The translations under genes were made by a program, and so were the position numbers. The notes beneath the pieces were generated by a model. It saw nothing but the letters and a program-made list of their open reading frames with translations. It was not told the origin of the DNA and did not search any database. From an uncultured candidate division Zixibacteria bacterium (GTDB lineage: Bacteria > Zixibacteria > MSB-5A5 > RBG-16-43-9), in the NCBI GenBank assembly GCA_963713865.1, contig OY970208.1, positions 192,001-256,000 of the forward strand: a stretch of 64,000 nt of DNA, written 5' to 3'. Shown here piece after piece: positions 7,875 through 58,291 of this stretch (the first letter of the stretch is position 1; the number at the start of each line of letters is the position of its first letter).

Positions 7875-8309
7875 TCATCGGTTATCAGATCCTCTGTCCT
7901 TTCCATAAGTGAATTCTCTGATGTGCATCCCGTAGATTTCATCAAAACCTAATTTTTTATAGAATGCTCCTTTATCCGGATCAGTGATTAAAACAATATC
8001 ATAATAACCCCTAAGATGCGAAATCGCCAGATTCACCAGATGCTTGCCAATCCCTTTTCCTTGATGGAGCTGGAGAACTTCAACCAGAGTGATAAAGGCA
8101 TGCATCGCTCCATCGCTAATTGCTGTAAGAAAACCTAAAAGCTTCCCCTTTTCCCTGGCAGTGATTATTAGATCAGACCCGGCTATAAGCCTACCTTTAA
8201 TCTTTGAGGAGGGAGGCGATTTCCAATTCTGGAAAAAGGAGTCAAGCTCATCCTGCATAACGCTGTCATTTATTTTATACTCGATCATCTCAAATTTTGT
8301 AGGTCGCAA
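7875..8309 (-). CDS. GNAT N-acetyltransferase (start uncertain)
   Basis: HQGKGIG acetyl-CoA motif, FYKKLGF. Confidence 0.8.
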   Translation of the reverse strand: MRPTKFEMIEYKINDSVMQDELDSFFQNWKSPPSSKIKGRLIAGSDLIITAREKGKLLGFLTAISDGAMHAFITLVEVLQLHQGKGIGKHLVNLAISHLRGYYDIVLITDPDKGAFYKKLGFDEIYGMHIREFTYGKDRGSDNR

Positions 8310-8365
8310 TCCCCGATGTATCAGAAGTCACCTTCTGTCTACAACATACTTATCCTACTATGCTC

Positions 8366-8833
8366 TCAACTCAAACTAAGTTCCATGAATATCGCACCCT
8401 TTACAGGATTGGGCCGATAAGGCTCAATTTCTTTAAAGCCCAAAGAGCGATAAAGCGCTATTGCTTCCTTCATCGAAGGAACAGTATCCAGAAGCATTTT
8501 GGAATAACCGAGCTTGCGCGCCTCCTCAATAATAGTCACTGCTAAACCTCTGCCGATCCCTTTCCCTTTAAATTCTGGTTTTACATATAACCTTTTCATC
8601 TCGCAGATACCTTCGCTGAATTTTCTCAAAGCAACGCATCCAGCTGTCTTCGTTTCGTATTCAGCTAAAAGCAGGCAGCCGTCAGGCGGAGCATAATCTC
8701 CCGGAAGCCCTGCCAGCTCTTTGTCGAAATTCTGAAAACAGAGGTCAAAATTTAGAGAACTGGCGTACTCTATGAACAATTCTTTAATCTGACCAAGTTG
8801 TTCTTCAGATTCAGCATAAACGAATTTTAACAT
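8366..8833 (-). CDS. GNAT N-acetyltransferase
   Basis: CEMKRLYV.PEFKGKGIG, AIALYRSLGF. Confidence 0.9.
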   Translation of the reverse strand: MLKFVYAESEEQLGQIKELFIEYASSLNFDLCFQNFDKELAGLPGDYAPPDGCLLLAEYETKTAGCVALRKFSEGICEMKRLYVKPEFKGKGIGRGLAVTIIEEARKLGYSKMLLDTVPSMKEAIALYRSLGFKEIEPYRPNPVKGAIFMELSLS

Positions 8834-9184
8834 TTCCTGATAATTCCTAAAATGTCAGACACTTTTTTGTCAAGCAGATCGCCTTTGATGAGATATGCTT
8901 AACCTGAGATCTACTGGAGTTTAAAACCTTAGTTTTATCTTGAATAATCATTGTAAAACACGGGATTTCTTTCTTGTAAACCTGGGGGTTTACACTCCCA
9001 AAACTATTTTGTCAAGTTTCTCTCATCGGGTATAAAGCCTGACGCTATTTTTTTTTCGTCTTCCTTTTTATGCTTTCCTTTTCCCCTTTTTTAGGGATTT
9101 AACCGCACTAACTTTAACACTTACCACCCAAATCCTTTATCTCGATAATGGTAGGACAGGCATCTTGTCTGTCCTTAGCTTAAC

Positions 9185-11358
9185 TCATTTACTCTCCAAC
9201 ATCCCCATCCCAAGAATCTTGAACAAAAACGCATAGATATCGCTTGATTCCTCGATGACTTTTGAGGTTGGCTTTCCACCACCGTGCCCGGCTTTGGTCT
9301 CCACCCGTAGTAAAACAGGATTGTCTCCTGCTGCTACAGATTGCAGGGCTGCGGCAAATTTTTTAGCATGTAAGGGTGCTACCCGGTCATCGGTATCTGC
9401 TGTGGTAATCAAAATTGGTGGATAGACCACTCCTTTTTTTACATTGTGCAAAGGTGAATAAGCATAAAGAAATTTGAACTGGTCCGGATTTACTTCTGCG
9501 TTTCCATATTCCGGTATCCAGTAGCGTCCCACGGTGAACTTATGATATCTCAGCATATCGATAACCGGAACCTGGCAGATAACCGCACCGAACAAGTCCG
9601 GTCGCTGGACCATGCAGGCCGCAACTAACAGACCGCCATTGCTCCCGCCACTGATCGCTAATTTTTTTGAGCTGGTATATCTATTTTTAATCAGCCATTC
9701 TGCCGCAGCTATAAAATCATCGAATACGTTCTGCTTTTTATCTAACATCCCTGCCTGGTGCCAGGCTTCACCATATTCATCCCCCCCGCGTAAATTCGCT
9801 ACAGCAAATACTCCACCGTTTTCCAGCCAGACCAGAACGGGATATAGAAAAATACGGGGTGATACTGCTGTTAAAACCACCGTAACCATAAAGGAGAACC
9901 GGATTATTCCCATCCAATTTGAGTCCTTTTTTGTGAACTATGAACATCGGTACCTTTGTGCCGTCCCTGGAAGTATAGAATACCTGCTCGGTTTCATATC
10001 CGGACAGGTCGAAATCGATTTTACTCTCAAAAAAAGGCGAGAGCTTCTCAGTTTCAAAATCATATCGAAAAATAGTCTGGGGATATAGAAAAGAAGTGAA
10101 CTCAAAAAACATCTCCTTATCTTTTTGTTCTGGCTGAAATACTCCCGATTGAACCTAAATCCGGTAATTTAATCTCTTTCAAAAAAACTCCATTCAGGTT
10201 ATGAAGCATCATTTTATGCTTAGCATCCTGCATATAAACCAGCACTAATTGATGGTTGACCATATCCGCAAAACTCAATACTTCTTTTTTCTGCGAGATA
10301 ATCTCTTTCCAGTTGTTTGGAGATGGATTATTTATATTAATCTGTATAATTCTGCCATTCGGGGCATCTAAATCCGTGCGAAAGTAGAACAGCGTATCGA
10401 GGTTGCTGATGAAAGTATAGTTGGCATCAGCTTTATCCAAGAGCTTGATGAATGGTCCGTTACTTTGTACCTCGCGGTAATAAATCCGGTTTTTCGGGTC
10501 AGTGCCGTGCTCCACAATCAGGACAAGATATTTTCCGTCCTCAGTGATAAAGGGCGTGAAATCAAATTCCTTTGTTTCTGGTTGTTCATAGATGAGCAGG
10601 TCTTCGGATTGAGAAGTGCCGAGTTTATGATAATAAACTCTACTGTAACTGTACTGATCCTCCTCTGGCACACTGCCCGGCTCAGGATAGCGATTATAAT
10701 AAAACCCCTGATTATTATGTTTCCAGGCAACATTGCTGAACTTAAGCCATTTTATAACCTCCGGGTATTCTTTCCCAGTTTCGATATTTAATATCCTGAC
10801 CTCCTGCCAGTCACTCCCGCTTTTTGAAATGCCATAAGCCAGGAGTTTACCATCCATACTGAAAGCCGGGATAGTCAGGGCTATGGTCCCATCCGGGCTG
10901 AGTTTATTGGGATCAATTACCATAATCGGTTTGCTGTTTAAACTTTCTTGCATGTAATACACCGATTGATTCTGCAGTCCATCGTTTTTGGTATAAAAGT
11001 ACCGTTCACCTTTTTTAATTGGCACAGAATATTTAGGATAATTCCACAATTTTGTCAATTTTGCCTTGATCTTTTCCCTTTGAGGAATGGAATTGAGAAA
11101 ATTGTAAGTCAATTTATTCTCCGCTTCCACCCAGGCCTGGGTCTCAGGAGAATCCGGATTTTCCAGCCAGCGGTAAGGATCAGCCACTTTAGTGCCGAAA
11201 TAATCATCCACCACATTATCCGTTTTTGCGACTGGATATTTAAACTTTTGAGCATAACTCAGGCTGAAAAGGGTAATCAGGACAAAACAAAACGCCAGTA
11301 AAGAAGAAAGAAAGCATACCTTAAAATCGATTCTTTTACTGTTGAATTTTCTTGGCAT
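9185..11358 (-). pseudogene. Prolyl oligopeptidase (S9A) split by two single-base insertions (about 10128 and 9836)
   Basis: Three consecutive ORFs give signal peptide, VADPYRWLE, beta-propeller, YGYGGFN, GGSNGG, DDRV and GHG; deleting one base at each break restores one frame. Confidence 0.88.
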
Positions 11359-52474: not shown

Positions 52475-52840
52475 ATGGAATGCTACTTCTATGGAACTAT
52501 AAGAATAGGGGAGGAGAAGGAAAGGTTCAATGGGGTGGTATCCTTCGCCATACCTGATTTAGGGATCATCTTCCGGGCGCAGTACAAAGGCTCTCCTCCT
52601 GAATGTGAATATGCCAGTCTCTTAGCCCTTCTGGAGTTCATAGAACAGAACCCGAATCTGTTCAAGAGTAAAAGAATAGAAATTTACGGTGACAGTTTTA
52701 TGGTAGTTCATCAGGTTAATATGCAGATGCACTGTGCCAAAGAGTTAGAGCCTTACCGCAATATGGCACTGGGCTATAAAAAGAAAATCCCTTATGTATT
52801 GAACTGGATTCCAAAACATGATAATCCGGCATTGATTTAA
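52475..52840 (+). CDS. RNase H-like domain protein with degenerate active site
   Basis: RBS AGGAGG; EY.SLL.LLE, IEIYGDS..VV.QV, WIPK.DN; first Asp replaced by Tyr and last Asp absent. Confidence 0.75.
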   Translation: MECYFYGTIRIGEEKERFNGVVSFAIPDLGIIFRAQYKGSPPECEYASLLALLEFIEQNPNLFKSKRIEIYGDSFMVVHQVNMQMHCAKELEPYRNMALGYKKKIPYVLNWIPKHDNPALI

Positions 52841-54286: not shown

Positions 54287-54314
54287 CGGGAATATTTTTT
54301 ATCTTAAATTGTAT
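54287..54314 (+). promoter_or_regulatory. Candidate autoregulatory ECF promoter (copy 1)
   Basis: CGGGAATATTTT-N10-TTGTAT just upstream of ECF gene; same motif before VIT-vWA gene. Confidence 0.65.
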
Positions 54315-54322
54315 TGTAACTG

Positions 54323-54916
54323 ATGGAAGTTCTGATGGCGGAGAAAAGGTTTAGAACTAAATCTGAGGAGCCGGAGGAAAAACTAATAGCTAAAGCCAAA
54401 AGAGGGGATATCTATTCTTTTGAAAGGCTGGTGGAAAAATATCAGAAGAAAATCTATTACCTGGCACTGCGTATGACCAGATCGCATGAGGCCGCAGATG
54501 ACCTGGCACAGGAAGCTTTTATCAAAGCGTTCTATGCTCTGAAATCCTTTAAGGAAGGCTTCAGTTTCTCAGCCTGGGTTTATAAGATCTGTATGAACCT
54601 GACCCTGAATTATCTTAAAAGACAGAAATTCACCATTCCGGAAAGCCAGCTTCCAGAAAACTATTTTGAATCTTTGAACCACAAGGATAAAGATGATTTT
54701 TCAGACCAGTTAGTCAAAGAGGAGCTGAGAAAAAAAATTGAGCAGGAAATAGATAATCTGCCCCCGGATTTTAAAGCAGTCTTTATATTGAAAACCTATG
54801 AAGATTTAAGTTACGAACAGATAGCTCAGGCTTTGAAGATCTCTAAGGGAACCGTAATGTCCCGGCTGTTCCGGGCAAGGGAGAGAATGCAGAGGAGTTT
54901 AAAAGGTTATCTATGA
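54323..54916 (+). CDS. ECF RNA polymerase sigma factor
   Basis: GD..SF..LV.KY, ADDLAQEAFIKA, FSAWVYKI..N, LSYEQIA..L.IS.GTVMSRL.RAR. Confidence 0.94.
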   Translation: MEVLMAEKRFRTKSEEPEEKLIAKAKRGDIYSFERLVEKYQKKIYYLALRMTRSHEAADDLAQEAFIKAFYALKSFKEGFSFSAWVYKICMNLTLNYLKRQKFTIPESQLPENYFESLNHKDKDDFSDQLVKEELRKKIEQEIDNLPPDFKAVFILKTYEDLSYEQIAQALKISKGTVMSRLFRARERMQRSLKGYL

Positions 54917-54922
54917 AAGAAG

Positions 54923-56071
54923 GTGGGAAAATTGAAGTGTGAGGATTTTGACAAATTACTCCATCTTTATTTCGATGGAGAGCTGAAAGAAAAAGAGTTT
55001 GAAAAGATAGAAGAACATCTTTTGAGCTGCCAAAGGTGTGCTGAAAAGCTGCAGGAGCTTAAAAACCTGGAGGAAGAGGTCAAAGGGATAAAGATGCCCG
55101 AGCCTTCTGGCACCTACTGGAAAACCTTTACCGAGGAGGTTAGAAACAAGATCATCCTGAGCAGGAAAAAATCTTTCTGGGCAAAAATTAAGTCTGGCTG
55201 GGAGTCATTTTTCTACTACTCGCCAGCTAAGCTGAGAATAGCCGCCGGAATTGCCTCAGTCCTTTTAGTCTTTATCGTAGGCAAGCTTTACTGGGACTAT
55301 AAAGGAAAAGAATTGGAAGAAATAAGGTCTTTGAGAATGGAGAAATCTTTAAGCTCTCAAGTCCCCAAAAAAGTTGAATACCCAGCCCCAGCAATTAAGG
55401 AGTCTGCTCAGGTTGGGAATCAAATAAAGGAATCAACCATTGTCGAACAGAAATTGCCATTACCAGAAGAAAAAATCAAGGATAAAACAAAAAAAGAGGC
55501 TGGACAAGGCAAAATCATAGTGCCTGAGTCAACTATAACTGTTACTGCTGAAAGACCAAAGATCGAGAAAGGGGTGACTGCAAATTTAAGGACTGTAACT
55601 CAAGCAGAATTAGCTATAAAACCTCCAGGTGTGCCAGAAACAACTATCCAAGTTCAGAAATTACCAGAAGAAAAGAAAGCCATTAAAGTATTAGCAGAAC
55701 AAACTATTTCAACAAAAAAAATAGGTGAGGAATTATATCCTTCTGAAGGTGTAAGATATTATATGCCTGTTAAAACCTGGATTAGAGCTTTGAATGAAAA
55801 AGATACTTTAGTGGAAGTAGATACCCTGAAAAAAGTGATTACTTCCTGGAAAGAATTTTTTGAAAAAAAGCAAAAACCCGAATGGATTCCTGAAGGATTT
55901 TCACAAATTGCGATTGCTTATCAGCTTCTTTTCCTCAAGACCAAAGACCAGGTTCTACTGCAAGAAGGGATTGAGCTTCTGAAAAAATATAATGAGTCTG
56001 CAACTGACCAGAGAATTAAGGAGGAATTTGGTAAGAAAATTGAAGAGCTGGAGAATTTGAAGAAAAAATAA
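54923..56071 (+). CDS. Zinc-finger (HxxxCxxC) anti-sigma factor with one TM and extracytoplasmic domain
   Basis: C......L..Y.DGEL...IEEHL.SCQRC; TM IAAGIASVLLVFIVG; adjacent to ECF gene. Confidence 0.88.
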   Translation: MGKLKCEDFDKLLHLYFDGELKEKEFEKIEEHLLSCQRCAEKLQELKNLEEEVKGIKMPEPSGTYWKTFTEEVRNKIILSRKKSFWAKIKSGWESFFYYSPAKLRIAAGIASVLLVFIVGKLYWDYKGKELEEIRSLRMEKSLSSQVPKKVEYPAPAIKESAQVGNQIKESTIVEQKLPLPEEKIKDKTKKEAGQGKIIVPESTITVTAERPKIEKGVTANLRTVTQAELAIKPPGVPETTIQVQKLPEEKKAIKVLAEQTISTKKIGEELYPSEGVRYYMPVKTWIRALNEKDTLVEVDTLKKVITSWKEFFEKKQKPEWIPEGFSQIAIAYQLLFLKTKDQVLLQEGIELLKKYNESATDQRIKEEFGKKIEELENLKKK

Positions 56072-56078
56072 ATTTTTT

Positions 56079-56107
56079 CGGGAATATTTTCCTTCCTTGA
56101 TTTGTAT
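56079..56107 (+). promoter_or_regulatory. Candidate ECF promoter (copy 2)
   Basis: CGGGAATATTTT-N11-TTGTAT upstream of VIT-vWA gene. Confidence 0.65.
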
Positions 56108-56140
56108 AGGGAGTAGAAAAACCTTTTCAAGGAGGGAATT

Positions 56141-58291
56141 ATGAAAAAAGTAAGTCTTATAATCAGCTTCTTCCTGCTCTTAACTTCAAATATCTGGGCT
56201 GATGGATTCATTATCCCCGTGCCTCGCTATCCGGAAGAGCCACCTCCCCCTTATCTTTCGATCAAATATCATAACGTGGAGATCAAAATCGACAATCAGG
56301 TAGCCCAAACCACTGTCGATCAGGTTTTCAAAAACGATTATCCTCACGATTTAGAGGGAACTTATATCTTTCCCCTGCCTGAAGATGCCAGCATCTCCAG
56401 ATTCTCTATGTTTATTAAAGGGGAAGAGATAAAAGGGGAAATTCTGGATAGAGAAAAAGCCAAAAGAATCTATGAGGAGATAGTCAGGAGAAGAAAAGAC
56501 CCGGCTCTTTTGGAATATTATAATCAGGGGATGTTCCGAGCCCGGGTCTATCCCATACCAGCCCATGGCGAGACCAGGATAAAATTAGGATATTCTCAGA
56601 TCTTGAAATTGGAAAACGGGCTCTGCGAATACAACTATTCACTTTCCACTGAGAAATTCTCCCGGAACCCTTTAGAAAGTGTGAGAATCGAGCTGGTGAT
56701 AAACTCGGATACCCCCATTAAAAACGTCTATTCTCCAACTCAGGACATAAGGGTCGAGAGAGAAAATGACCATAGAGTCAAGGTCTCTTACTTTGAAGAG
56801 AATACCAAACCGAATAAAGATTTTGTCCTGTATTACACTCTATCCGAAGAAGAAATAGGTTTCACCCTTTTAAGCTATCAGGACGAAAAAGAGGGGAATT
56901 TCTTTATGGCTCTGTTCTCCCCTCAACTCCAGAGAGCTGAGAAACCGATCCGGAAAAAAATCATTTTCCTTTTAGATACCTCTGGCAGTATGCAGGGCGA
57001 GAAGATCAAACAGGCTAAAAACGCCTTGATCTTCTGCCTGAACGGCTTAAATCCCGGAGACAGCTTCAACCTTATCGATTTTGACGACCGCATAAAAACC
57101 TTCAAAGAAAGGCTATTGCTCGCTACCAAAGAAAACATTGATTCAGGCGTTAAATTTATCCAGGGCTGTGAGGCAGAAGGTGGAACAGACATTAATTCAG
57201 CACTTTTGGAAGGCTTAGAAAAACTCAATCCTGAAGACAGAACTTCCTATATAATATTTTTGACAGATGGCCTACCTACAGTTGGTGTAACAGATATCAA
57301 AAAGATTTTGGAAAACGTCAAAGCAAGGAACAGCAATGGCAGGATTTTTGTCTTCGGCGTTGGATTCGACGTCAACACCCATTTCTTAGACCGCTTGGCT
57401 AAAGACAATCACGCTGCTTCTGATTATGTAACTCCATCTGAGGATATTGAGGTAAAAGTTTCAAGCTTTTATAAGAAAATCTCCAATCCCATATTATCTG
57501 ATTTAAGCTTGAAATTCTCCGGGGTTAAAACCTTTGACCTCTACCCTGGAGAGCTGCCCGATCTTTTCAGTGGCTCTCAGATAATCGTTTTAGGGAAATA
57601 CGAAGGTGAAGGTATATCTTTTGCCACTTTATCCGGATACACAAACGCAGGAAAAGAAGTCTACTCTTATAAAGTTAAATTTTCTCCTGCTGAACAGAAT
57701 AATTTTATCCCCCGGCTTTGGGCAATGAGACGGATTGGCTATTTGTCAGACCAGATCAGACTATATGGGAAAAATACGGAATTGGTTGATGAGATTGTGC
57801 ATCTTTCAAAAAGATATGGCATTATCACTCAATACACCTCCTTTCTTGTTGACACTGATCGCTCAATAAATGTTACAGCAGATAGACCAATAATCGAAAA
57901 GGGTGTAACTTCTAATCTTCGGACTATGACCGGCTCAGAAGCAGTTTATCAAGCTCTAAAGGCTCAGGAACTGCAAAGTGCTCCAGTTGTTCCAGATAGA
58001 TACACCGATTCCTCAGGTAAAGAGAAAAAAGTAACTGAAGTAAAACAAGTGGCAAACAAGACCTTTTTCAAAAAAGGTGAGATCTGGGTGGATAGCGAGT
58101 ATGATACTAAACTTAAGACTATAAAAATTCAAAGGTTTAGCCTGGCTTATTTTGAATTGGCTAAAAAATTTCCGGAATTTGAGAAATATCTCTCTTTAGG
58201 TGATAAGGTTATCTTCGTGTTCAAGGGTAAAGTGATTAAGATAGCTGACCAGGGAGAGGAAAAAATTGAGGTTCTGAATGAATTAAAGTAG
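56141..58291 (+). CDS. Secreted VIT and vWA domain protein
   Basis: Signal peptide; VIT (EGTYIFPLP.DA, RKDPALLEY); MIDAS DTSGS, GGT.I..AL, FLTDG.PT; RLWA.RRI. Confidence 0.92.
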   Translation: MKKVSLIISFFLLLTSNIWADGFIIPVPRYPEEPPPPYLSIKYHNVEIKIDNQVAQTTVDQVFKNDYPHDLEGTYIFPLPEDASISRFSMFIKGEEIKGEILDREKAKRIYEEIVRRRKDPALLEYYNQGMFRARVYPIPAHGETRIKLGYSQILKLENGLCEYNYSLSTEKFSRNPLESVRIELVINSDTPIKNVYSPTQDIRVERENDHRVKVSYFEENTKPNKDFVLYYTLSEEEIGFTLLSYQDEKEGNFFMALFSPQLQRAEKPIRKKIIFLLDTSGSMQGEKIKQAKNALIFCLNGLNPGDSFNLIDFDDRIKTFKERLLLATKENIDSGVKFIQGCEAEGGTDINSALLEGLEKLNPEDRTSYIIFLTDGLPTVGVTDIKKILENVKARNSNGRIFVFGVGFDVNTHFLDRLAKDNHAASDYVTPSEDIEVKVSSFYKKISNPILSDLSLKFSGVKTFDLYPGELPDLFSGSQIIVLGKYEGEGISFATLSGYTNAGKEVYSYKVKFSPAEQNNFIPRLWAMRRIGYLSDQIRLYGKNTELVDEIVHLSKRYGIITQYTSFLVDTDRSINVTADRPIIEKGVTSNLRTMTGSEAVYQALKAQELQSAPVVPDRYTDSSGKEKKVTEVKQVANKTFFKKGEIWVDSEYDTKLKTIKIQRFSLAYFELAKKFPEFEKYLSLGDKVIFVFKGKVIKIADQGEEKIEVLNELK

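Follow-up and report, generated by a model that had tools for sequence, protein, structure and literature searches.

Receptor-like TonB-box segments in an anti-sigma factor and an exported VIT-vWA protein of Zixibacteria

Our sequence comparisons indicate that an anti-sigma factor and an exported VIT-vWA protein, encoded side by side behind an ECF sigma factor gene in a Zixibacteria genome, each reproduce, in a piece called segment A here, the TonB box and plug entry of TBDR1, a TonB-dependent receptor of the same genome. The shared copies point to an undescribed wiring of gene control to the TBDR1 transporter system. A full-text search of the literature found no description of this arrangement, in agreement with a preliminary description of the DNA that knew of none. 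Positions below refer to the window, the whole 64,000-nt stretch of DNA that was analysed; all features lie on its forward strand.

The sigma factor gene (54323..54916) encodes 197 aa with sigma-70 regions 2 and 4 only (Pfam Sigma70_r2, E 9e-19; Sigma70_r4_2, E 5e-16). Among NCBIfam models it scores highest against those of the RpoE/SigW type, yet under their equivalog cut-offs. After a gap of 6 nt follows the gene for a single-pass zf-HC2 anti-sigma factor of 382 aa (54923..56071; Pfam zf-HC2, E 1e-7). The adjoining genes, the N-terminal zf-HC2 domain and the one membrane helix are those of an ECF sigma factor paired with a class I (zf-HC2) anti-sigma factor. Together with its AF2 model, the anti-sigma sequence resolves into an anti-sigma domain (residues 1-96), a membrane helix at about 101-125 that is part of a long modelled helix (101-143), a disordered, predicted periplasmic linker of 125 residues (143-267, at 55349..55723; pLDDT < 50 over these residues) and a helical-repeat C-terminal domain (270-382) that finds generic helical-repeat matches alone, with Z up to 11.

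The third gene (56141..58291) encodes an exported VIT-vWA protein of 716 aa (Pfam VIT, E 1e-31; VWA, E 3e-16). It is composed of a signal peptide, an ITIH1-like body (residues 22-565), a disordered linker (residues 566-617, at 57836..57991; pLDDT < 50 over these residues) and a small C-terminal domain (620-716), and its AF2 model has a pLDDT of 78.5. Foldseek matches the body to inter-alpha-inhibitor heavy chain 1 (PDB 6fpy; E 9e-40, TM-score 0.45/0.52), whose fold it has in common. The protein described here differs from heavy chain 1 in being bacterial and periplasmic, in its extra disordered linker with the receptor copy, and in its small C-terminal domain. Both domains of the VIT-vWA (ITIH-like) class are present and the predicted metal-ion site is intact, the candidate MIDAS residues D279, S281, S283, T349 and D376 being invariant across 73 sequences. 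The Pfam matches thus agree with the identities first proposed for the three genes, and their order is kept in all 33 loci with a vWA match (34 loci fetched). Taken jointly with the whole mimicry explanation given below, we consider it an even call that these three proteins form a conserved Zixibacteria envelope-signalling unit.

The segment that links the second and third proteins is short and well defined. Positions 55535-55600 translate to ITVTAERPKIEKGVTANLRTVT (anti-sigma residues 205-226) and positions 57866-57931 to INVTADRPIIEKGVTSNLRTMT (VIT-vWA residues 576-597). As the preliminary description had reported, these 22-residue peptides are identical at 17 residues, 9 of which use different codons; their DNA agrees at 48 of 66 nucleotides, with a longest exact common run of 7 nt. 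The two proteins are otherwise unrelated, as had also been claimed. BLASTP of the whole proteins returns the peptide stretch as the single significant match (18/32 identical, E 2e-8; runner-up E 0.34), and a comparison of their family profiles finds nothing in common (hhalign E 0.58). The diverged codons, and the recurrence of the peptide in orthologues, support the earlier view that selection acts on the peptide and argue against a recent DNA copy. In the AF2 models both copies sit in low-confidence (pLDDT < 50) linkers flanked by folded parts, the anti-sigma copy about 80 residues past the membrane helix. Degenerate echoes had been claimed within the anti-sigma factor as well, and these are weakly supported: echo 1, IKESTIVEQKLPLPEEKIK (55424..55480), is similar to echo 3, VPETTIQVQKLPEEKKAIK (55631..55687), with a score of 40 that is attained by 5 of 1000 shuffles, and the core PETT..VQK.PE.K of echo 3 also appears when the aligned orthologues are condensed into a consensus. 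The score of repeat 2 against repeat 3 is attained by 55 of 1000 shuffles, and that of repeat 1 against repeat 2 by 415 of 1000.

What had been described as a resemblance to the TonB box and plug entry of receptors proved to be true homology, and the homologous receptor is encoded in the same genome. Besides the anti-sigma factor and the vWA protein, the peptide matched the TonB-box position of TBDR1 and a second receptor, TBDR2. An HMM built solely from TBDR1 orthologues matched TBDR1, TBDR2, the anti-sigma factor (E 3.7e-10) and the vWA protein (E 2.4e-8) alone at E < 1e-3 among the 15,346 ORFs of this genome. Segment A corresponds to the TonB-box and plug-entry position of TBDR1, with 18 of 22 residues identical in the anti-sigma factor and 16 of 22 in the vWA protein, and the Plug match of the TBDR1 ORF begins directly after the peptide, at residue 40. 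Different codons encode 9 of the 18 residues that the anti-sigma factor shares with TBDR1 and 10 of the 16 that the vWA protein shares with it; for anti-sigma factors and their own TBDR1 in two relatives the figures are 28/48 (G025) and 35/49 (G026). A wider search, of the G026 anti-sigma factor against 1.84 billion representatives, gave as best match beyond its anti-sigma relatives a protein of 1,114 aa (71% identity, query 215-288 on residues 112-183) with the domains CarboxypepD_reg (31-102), Plug (138-241) and barrel (586-1050). TBDR1 itself is composed of a CarboxypepD_reg extension, plug and barrel, the extension being judged from its N-terminal ORF and from Pfam on the relative P0176. 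In this genome its gene is split by a one-base frameshift, so TBDR1 may be inactive here, or the frameshift may be an assembly error. Neither the anti-sigma factor nor the vWA protein has a Plug or barrel domain in Pfam or a barrel in its AF2 model, which upholds the earlier statement that neither is a barrel receptor; what they share by homology with a TonB-dependent receptor is its TonB box and plug entry, and not its complete Plug and 22-strand barrel.

Orthologues of the anti-sigma factor and of the vWA protein have the peptide too, a point that the preliminary description had proposed to check, and protein-level selection keeps it. Copies equalled by 0 of 300 shuffles are present in the anti-sigma factors of 12 of 26 genomes and in the vWA proteins of 5 of 26. 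The vWA copy is far rarer than the anti-sigma copy. At E < 1e-3, segment A is found in 8 of 120 clusters of vWA homologues and segment B, described next, in 1 of 120; most are without any copy. Segment B (LK.Q.GFV...LH[IV][RK]GGRAGEV) is the next plug segment of the receptor, lacks the TonB box and replaces A in the same slot in nine anti-sigma orthologues (8 of 42 protein clusters plus G209). Simple pairing of A with A across loci is not upheld, since A/B, B/A, A/none and B/none are all found among partners paired by the length of their contig. It is possible to see in this patchy distribution, in the replacement of A by B and in the degenerate copies of many orthologues (such as G206, P0016, P0020 and P0029) a leftover without function, either from a captured fragment of a receptor gene or from gene conversion. 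We disfavour this reading as barely credible, because the codons have diverged while protein identity in this genome is still 73-82%, and because segment A is near-invariant in the otherwise 56-95% identical anti-sigma factors of f1, the family of this genome.

The copies also extend well beyond a TonB box. Anti-sigma factors of family f7 contain 70-80 contiguous residues of their own TBDR1, from the TonB box to IRGGR, at about 70% identity over 69-80 residues and with diverged codons (Smith-Waterman scores 220, 225 and 104; reached by 0 of 300 shuffles). The segment A of f7 is strongly unlike that of f1. In the vWA copies of P0055, P0075, P0083, G026 and G029 the TonB-box core is lost and the stretch after it is kept. 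Judged by these sequences, segment B without a TonB box, the f7 copies of about 75 residues and the vWA copies without the core count against reading the segments as TonB boxes only. Another possibility is docking to TBDR1 itself, in which the anti-sigma pseudo-plug, and the vWA copy, would replace the N-terminal TBDR1 plug strands pulled from the barrel, tying the anti-sigma factor to an active transporter and giving surface signalling without a signalling domain. Such docking would suit the N-terminal plug origin of both A and B, which f7 has contiguously, as well as the length of the linker and the distance of the copy from the membrane helix. The long f7 copies are more constrained than a short docking motif would require, and the N-terminal part of the plug is its force-labile part. 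We nevertheless think docking unlikely, given that f1 anti-sigma factors retain A alone or B alone and that the f7 copy is a weak match to the curated Plug model of Pfam (E 0.067 over positions 4-42).

Conserved motifs suggest that the sigma factor controls its own operon and the vWA gene. Ahead of the sigma/anti-sigma operon lies a predicted ECF-type promoter, GGAATA-N14-TTGTA (54289..54313), whose -10 element ends about 9 nt before the ATG; of 33 orthologous regions upstream of the sigma gene, 29 have GGAAT-N17-GTAT in the corresponding position. A second predicted promoter of this type lies in the 69 nt that separate the anti-sigma and vWA genes (56081..56106), and 30 of 33 loci have GGAAT-N15-18-[TGC]GTA no more than 160 nt upstream of the vWA gene. 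From this conservation we infer that the promoters belong to this ECF sigma factor, which would be autoregulatory, and that the vWA gene is probably its direct target. Genome-wide, GGAATA-N13-15-TTGTA has 9 matches, and only 3 are intergenic: one lies ahead of the sigma gene, one ahead of the vWA gene and one ahead of a 235-aa ORF heading exbB-exbD-exbD-tonB; second-order Markov simulations give 1-9 chance matches of the relaxed motif per genome. The motif precedes the TonB operon in 7 of 7 f1 relatives, a conservation that may reflect their relatedness within one family. The same pattern is before this operon in 0 of 13 f3/f4 genomes and was not found near exbB in f7/f8, where the mimic is longest.

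A conserved vWA target gene is one of several observations that could be taken to mean that the vWA protein is the reader of segment A. Its metal-ion site, with the invariant candidate MIDAS residues and the ITIH1-like body around it, would bind an acidic residue of the segment in the anti-sigma factor or in TBDR1 and protect it as RseB does, and the copy in its linker would compete from within the protein; conserved Glu/Asp residues are indeed present within segment A. The scarcity of copies among vWA homologues speaks against this, as does the AF2 model, in which the linker (pLDDT 33-40) is undocked from the body, and we judge it very unlikely.

We favour, at about a balanced probability, an explanation by molecular mimicry: the anti-sigma factor would copy the TBDR1 N-terminus in its linker, the sigma factor would report the load on TonB and TBDR1, and the vWA protein would feed back. 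Whatever engages the exposed TBDR1 N-terminus would also engage the anti-sigma factor, and the likeliest partner would be the C-terminal domain, encoded at 429606-429944 of contig C1, of the TonB from the exbB-exbD-exbD-tonB operon. The load might be sensed through competition for TonB, or through a pull of TonB on the linker. A competing copy would come from the vWA protein that the sigma factor induces, and in f1 the sigma factor may also raise exbBD-tonB expression. Alternatively, the anti-sigma factor may resemble unassembled TBDR1, such that surplus receptor titrates a protecting chaperone or activates a protease, leading to anti-sigma proteolysis. The disordered, exposed position of the copies is compatible with this, A or B alone suffices as client mimicry predicts, and the order of sigma factor, anti-sigma factor and periplasmic protein resembles rpoE-rseA-rseB. 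Yet it would leave the promoter before exbBD-tonB unexplained, the conservation is above what is usual for degrons, and no candidate protease or chaperone was identified; we regard it as quite improbable.

A known system close to this one is cell-surface signalling of the FecA/FecR/FecI type, where an ECF sigma factor and a single-pass anti-sigma factor are likewise linked to a TonB-dependent receptor and TonB. In a 2025 model of FecR (PMC12036975), the regulator becomes free for proteolysis when TonB exerts force through the TonB box of the receptor. The present locus differs from FecA/FecR/FecI in that the TonB box and plug entry are in the anti-sigma factor itself, which by Pfam is zf-HC2 only and not of the FecR type. 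Transducers were reportedly described in a 2024 paper as binding and protecting the anti-sigma factor. With TBDR1 at 1.476 Mb and the sigma gene at 0.246 Mb of contig C1, about 1.23 Mb apart, the receptor adjacency of FecIRA-type loci is absent, and the N-terminal extension of TBDR1 is of the CarboxypepD_reg type. In RpoE-RseA-RseB, the operon order is sigma factor, single-pass anti-sigma factor and periplasmic protein; the order here is the same, and the sigma factor scores highest against models of that type, but the third gene encodes a VIT-vWA protein and not RseB, and we know of no outer-membrane-protein copy in RseA. Colicins and other bacteriocins are non-receptor proteins that engage TonB with a TonB box in a disordered region. 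Those are toxins hijacking import, whereas the proteins that copy a receptor of their own cell in this genome, and well beyond the TonB box, are a housekeeping regulator and its output.

A further parallel is ECF255, which, according to the supplement of Casas-Pastor et al. 2021 (PMC7826278), has a sigma factor, a one-helix anti-sigma factor with a TonB-system element and an exported vWA neighbour, and is 98% Bacteroidetes. The exported vWA neighbour is thus also present here. As described there, the ECF255 anti-sigma factor has a TonB C-terminal domain, the reader, whereas the one studied here has what such a reader reads, a TonB box with plug entry; Pfam finds no TonB_C in our anti-sigma factor or vWA protein and no CarboxypepD_reg-like domain in the anti-sigma factor. 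The promoters differ too (TATGGAT at -35 and GCATCT at -10 for ECF255; GGGAATA/TTGTAT here). Somewhat short of an even chance, in our view, is the broader proposal of 'pseudo-plug' sensing: the anti-sigma factor would carry, as a disordered copy, the receptor part that TonB grips and pulls, and the state of the transporter or of TonB would therefore be read directly by mimicry, without a receptor signalling domain and with feedback by the vWA protein. Together with ECF255 this would make a family of sigma switches built from both halves of the TonB-box/TonB-domain pair.

The arrangement joins ECF sigma/anti-sigma switches, TonB-dependent transport and VIT-vWA proteins, and it hints at what the ITIH-like VIT-vWA proteins of bacteria may do. 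A defined peptide, a receptor and a TonB gene are now at hand for binding tests. It may also help to explain the TonB-domain anti-sigma factors of Bacteroidetes, so far known from classification only. If the mimicry is true, these cells would monitor TonB load or transporter activity via a transporter handle copied into a regulator.

The three genes of the locus carry the domains that the preliminary description gave them: an ECF sigma factor (window 54323-54916; Sigma70_r2 and r4_2 in Pfam), a zf-HC2 anti-sigma factor (54923-56071) and a signal-peptide-bearing VIT-vWA protein (56141-58291). The 22-residue peptides reported from the last two, at 55535-55600 and 57866-57931, are exact translations of the DNA. 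They agree at 17 of 22 residues (48 of 66 nucleotides), and 9 of those 17 are indeed encoded by different codons; the longest stretch of DNA that they have in common is 7 nt. The peptide is also the sole significant BLASTP stretch between two proteins described as otherwise unrelated (E 2e-8; the next stretch has E 0.34), and the anti-sigma and vWA family profiles have nothing in common. It is therefore an insert held in common, with no trace of shared protein descent, and its sharing is far from chance. For the degenerate echoes proposed elsewhere in the anti-sigma factor, support was weak. A 121-aa ORF without a Pfam match (window 52475-52840) is flanked by a dGTPase-like gene and by holA (DNA polymerase III delta).

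In the source genome, a single contig (C1) of 2.72 Mb with 40% G+C, a motif scan of all stop-to-stop ORFs recovered a third copy of the peptide, SITVVAERPIIDKGVTANLRTITSEQIARMP, in a 1,029-residue ORF (C1:1476252-1479338) that we call TBDR1, one of eight Plug-domain receptors encoded there. This copy lies directly before the Plug match and runs into its start, which is the TonB-box/plug-entry position (segment A). The anti-sigma copy agrees with it at 18 of 22 residues and the vWA copy at 16 of 22, about half of the identical residues being in different codons, and a more distant version occurs in TBDR2, a second receptor of the TBDR1 type. An HMM built solely from TBDR1 orthologues of the order matched, at E below 1e-3, only TBDR1, TBDR2, the anti-sigma factor and the vWA protein among 15,346 genome ORFs. 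The likeness to a TonB box that had been proposed thus reflects true homology to a receptor that this cell itself encodes. Relatives of the anti-sigma and vWA proteins are named Zixibacteria in their source records.

TBDR1 is itself split in the source genome (C1:1475972-1479341; locus L013 7973-11342) into parts that are out of frame, one with the signal peptide and CarboxypepD_reg (L013 7973-8287), the other with the TonB box, plug and barrel (8271-11342). The break, at about L013 8276-8282, reads CAGAACGACT, where the relatives' reading frame implies one A fewer, and is either an assembly error or the mark of a pseudogene. Orthologues occur in 34/34 genomes of the order, and the relatives have intact open frames, usually 1,100-1,200 residues long if the contig reaches far enough. 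Between the plug and barrel matches, at about residues 350-560 (L013 about 9300-9900), TBDR1 has long Asp/Asn/Gly-rich repeats, such as NGNGKWD and DIDGDGVYD, that look like calcium-binding repeats. Behind it (L013 11361-14969; C1:1479360-1482968) follow an 881-aa protein, which weakly matches a type IX secretion C-terminal region (E 1e-4 to the PorZ model), and an outer-membrane protein resembling PorV (E 3e-9 to PorV in Pfam).

For the vWA protein, AF2 modeling (pLDDT 78.5) leaves residues 566-617 below pLDDT 50. This stretch, with the peptide at residues 576-597, connects a body that resembles ITIH1 (Foldseek match 6fpy, E 9e-40) with a small domain at the C-terminus (620-716). In the anti-sigma model, residues 143-267 are below pLDDT 50 and run from the membrane helix to a helical-repeat C-terminal domain with generic structure matches only; here the peptide occupies residues 205-226. 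Because both lie within such low-confidence stretches, the copies are, as modeled, linear elements of short or medium length within flexible linkers in the periplasm, with folded parts on each side. The TonB box of TBDR1 relatives is likewise flanked, by the CarboxypepD_reg extension on one side and the plug on the other. The C-terminal domain of the vWA protein was rejected as a recognisable TonB domain (vWA family against TonB_C, hhalign E 0.5).

Receptor-derived segments thus stand in exposed linkers of two non-receptor proteins of one sigma circuit, where they would mimic the receptor N-terminus. Since the TonB C-terminal domain is what normally reads a TonB box, our best reading is that TonB engages the anti-sigma linker. 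Such engagement would link the sigma factor's activity to the TonB/TBDR1 system, and the vWA copy would compete, much as the preliminary description had imagined a decoy; we judge the chances of this reading to be about even. A complex prediction of the TonB C-terminal domain with anti-sigma residues 190-270, run without controls, scored 0.02 against a mark of 0.32 and tips the balance in neither direction.

The order sigma, anti-sigma, vWA is kept in 33/33 loci with a vWA match, among 34 loci fetched from the order and two further families. Segment A is almost unchanged in many of 31 aligned anti-sigma orthologues. Some anti-sigma factors carry only segment B, the next conserved plug piece of TBDR1 (LK.Q.GFV...LH[IV][RK]GGRAGEV), in the same alignment slot as A. 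It is possible, though rather unlikely, that the anti-sigma segment docks on TBDR1 itself, replacing the receptor's own extracted plug strands. Counted at E below 1e-3 with the HMMs made from TBDR1 alone, A was found in 21 and B in 8 of 42 anti-sigma protein clusters, and in 6 and 1, respectively, of 34 species genomes. For the vWA protein the corresponding numbers were 8 and 1 of 120 clusters and 3 and 0 of 33 species genomes, and both segments together were found in none of these four sets. Weaker matches, of the IL.TQVGFV type (E 0.03-0.6), are present in anti-sigma and vWA linkers of family f3; among background ORFs, none outside the receptors scores at E below 1.

Most vWA homologues have unrelated sequence of equal length at the peptide position, and some vWA copies have lost the TonB-box core and kept the stretch that follows. 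A further alternative, which we consider improbable, would be that the vWA protein reads the segment through its metal-ion site. Mixed pairs, seen when partners are matched by the length of their contig, rule out that the anti-sigma and vWA proteins of a locus invariably share one segment type. When the TBDR1 N-terminus of each of 26 genomes was compared with that genome's own proteins, the anti-sigma score exceeded all 300 shuffles in 12 genomes (7/8 in f1, the family of the source genome, 2 in f3 and 3/3 in f7) and the vWA score did so in 5 (4 in f1 and 1 in f3), a few further genomes being marginal.

Long copies are found in family f7, where the anti-sigma linkers of three genomes (G025, G026 and G027) hold a contiguous 50-80 residues of their own TBDR1, from upstream of the TonB box through the IRGGR motif (Smith-Waterman scores 220, 225 and 104); that of G026 adds second and third partial tandem copies. 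Segment A in f7, AG[RK]KAEIRKEVATSQVKVAAEEIEK, bears little resemblance to its f1 counterpart, and within each of the two families receptor and anti-sigma factor agree on the family's own version. The segments match the lineage's own receptor. Different codons encode 28 of 48 identical residues in G025 and 35 of 49 in G026. The receptor-derived segments have been kept by selection on the protein, and a functionless relic is very unlikely. In a search of 1.84 billion representatives, anti-sigma relatives ranked first for the G026 anti-sigma factor, and the best other match was a 1,114-residue receptor (Pfam CarboxypepD_reg 31-102, Plug 138-241, barrel 586-1050) with 71% identity over receptor residues 112-183. 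We infer, as the simplest history, that the anti-sigma gene long ago captured a fragment of a receptor gene (A and B), after which lineages kept different parts under protein-level selection.

A protease or chaperone might also recognise the receptor and its copies in common, which we think unlikely. Anti-sigma factors with B only, vWA copies without the TonB-box core and the long f7 copies favour these three alternatives, docking on TBDR1, the metal-ion site and a shared protease or chaperone, over a pure TonB-box reading. The TonB-box reading first proposed is partly supported: homology to one of the cell's own receptors is proven, and binding is predicted.

The promoters bear on how the circuit is wired. 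A dyad, GGGAATAWT-N13-TTGTAT, stands about 34 nt ahead of the sigma start codon in 29/33 loci. In most relatives the -10 element ends about 9 nt 5' of the sigma ATG (window 54289-54325), so near that the transcript of the sigma and anti-sigma genes may have little or no leader. A second sigma-type motif (window 56081-56106) lies in the 69-nt gap 5' of the vWA gene, which is preceded by such a motif in 30/33 loci. Core-motif counts were used instead of a position weight matrix from related sigma promoters, which over-fitted the spacer. GGAATA-N13-15-TTGTA has nine genome-wide matches, with simulations yielding 1-9; only three of the nine are intergenic, and these lie directly 5' of the sigma gene, of the vWA gene and of the first ORF (235 residues) in an exbB-exbD-exbD-tonB operon. 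The TonB-operon site is present in 7/7 f1 relatives, with a variable spacer, and in 0/13 f3/f4 genomes by the same pattern. No sigma-type motif was found near exbB in f7/f8, nor a sigma-type promoter 5' of TBDR1 in the source genome. The circuit's promoter type is thus also ahead of the vWA gene and, in f1, of the TonB operon. The predicted control of the vWA gene by the sigma factor is well supported; its predicted control of the TonB operon in f1 follows less firmly.

The protein heading this operon (L088 7706-8413; C1:432205-432912) has no Pfam or NCBIfam match and is matched in 30/34 genomes of the order, and an H+-pyrophosphatase gene comes next after tonB, whose C-terminal domain is encoded at C1:429606-429944. 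In the closest relative, G208, two tandem TonB-type genes end the exbBD operon (C11:78695-79845). The source genome further encodes a 174-aa ORF (C1:1176750-1177271, L009) whose signal peptide is lipoprotein-like and whose TonB C-terminal domain shares about 55% identity with its counterpart in the operon TonB. This lipoprotein-type paralogue was ruled out as a general dedicated reader, its full-length form occurring only in the source genome, 1/34 of the order.

Colicin-type TonB boxes and RpoE-RseA-RseB are background parallels to this circuit. Full-text searches of openly available papers found no anti-sigma factor that itself bears a TonB box or a copy of the plug, and none of the titles retrieved for Zixibacteria and TonB concerns such an arrangement. 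Closest in working principle is FecIRA-type cell-surface signalling, in which TonB is reported to release the sigma regulator via the receptor's TonB box (PMC12036975). In contrast, the regulator here is other than FecR-type and has the TonB box within itself, and the receptor is encoded away from the sigma gene. Closest in architecture is ECF255 of Bacteroidetes, where an anti-sigma factor with a single helix bears a TonB C-terminal domain and is neighboured by an exported vWA protein (PMC7826278 supplement). Our anti-sigma factor carries the complementary element, TonB_C was found neither in it nor in the vWA protein, and the promoter differs.

The system is best filed as receptor-linked ECF signalling built on molecular mimicry, with contact between the segment and TonB as a prediction from sequence. 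Because it offers defined peptides and partners for testing, its interest is high.
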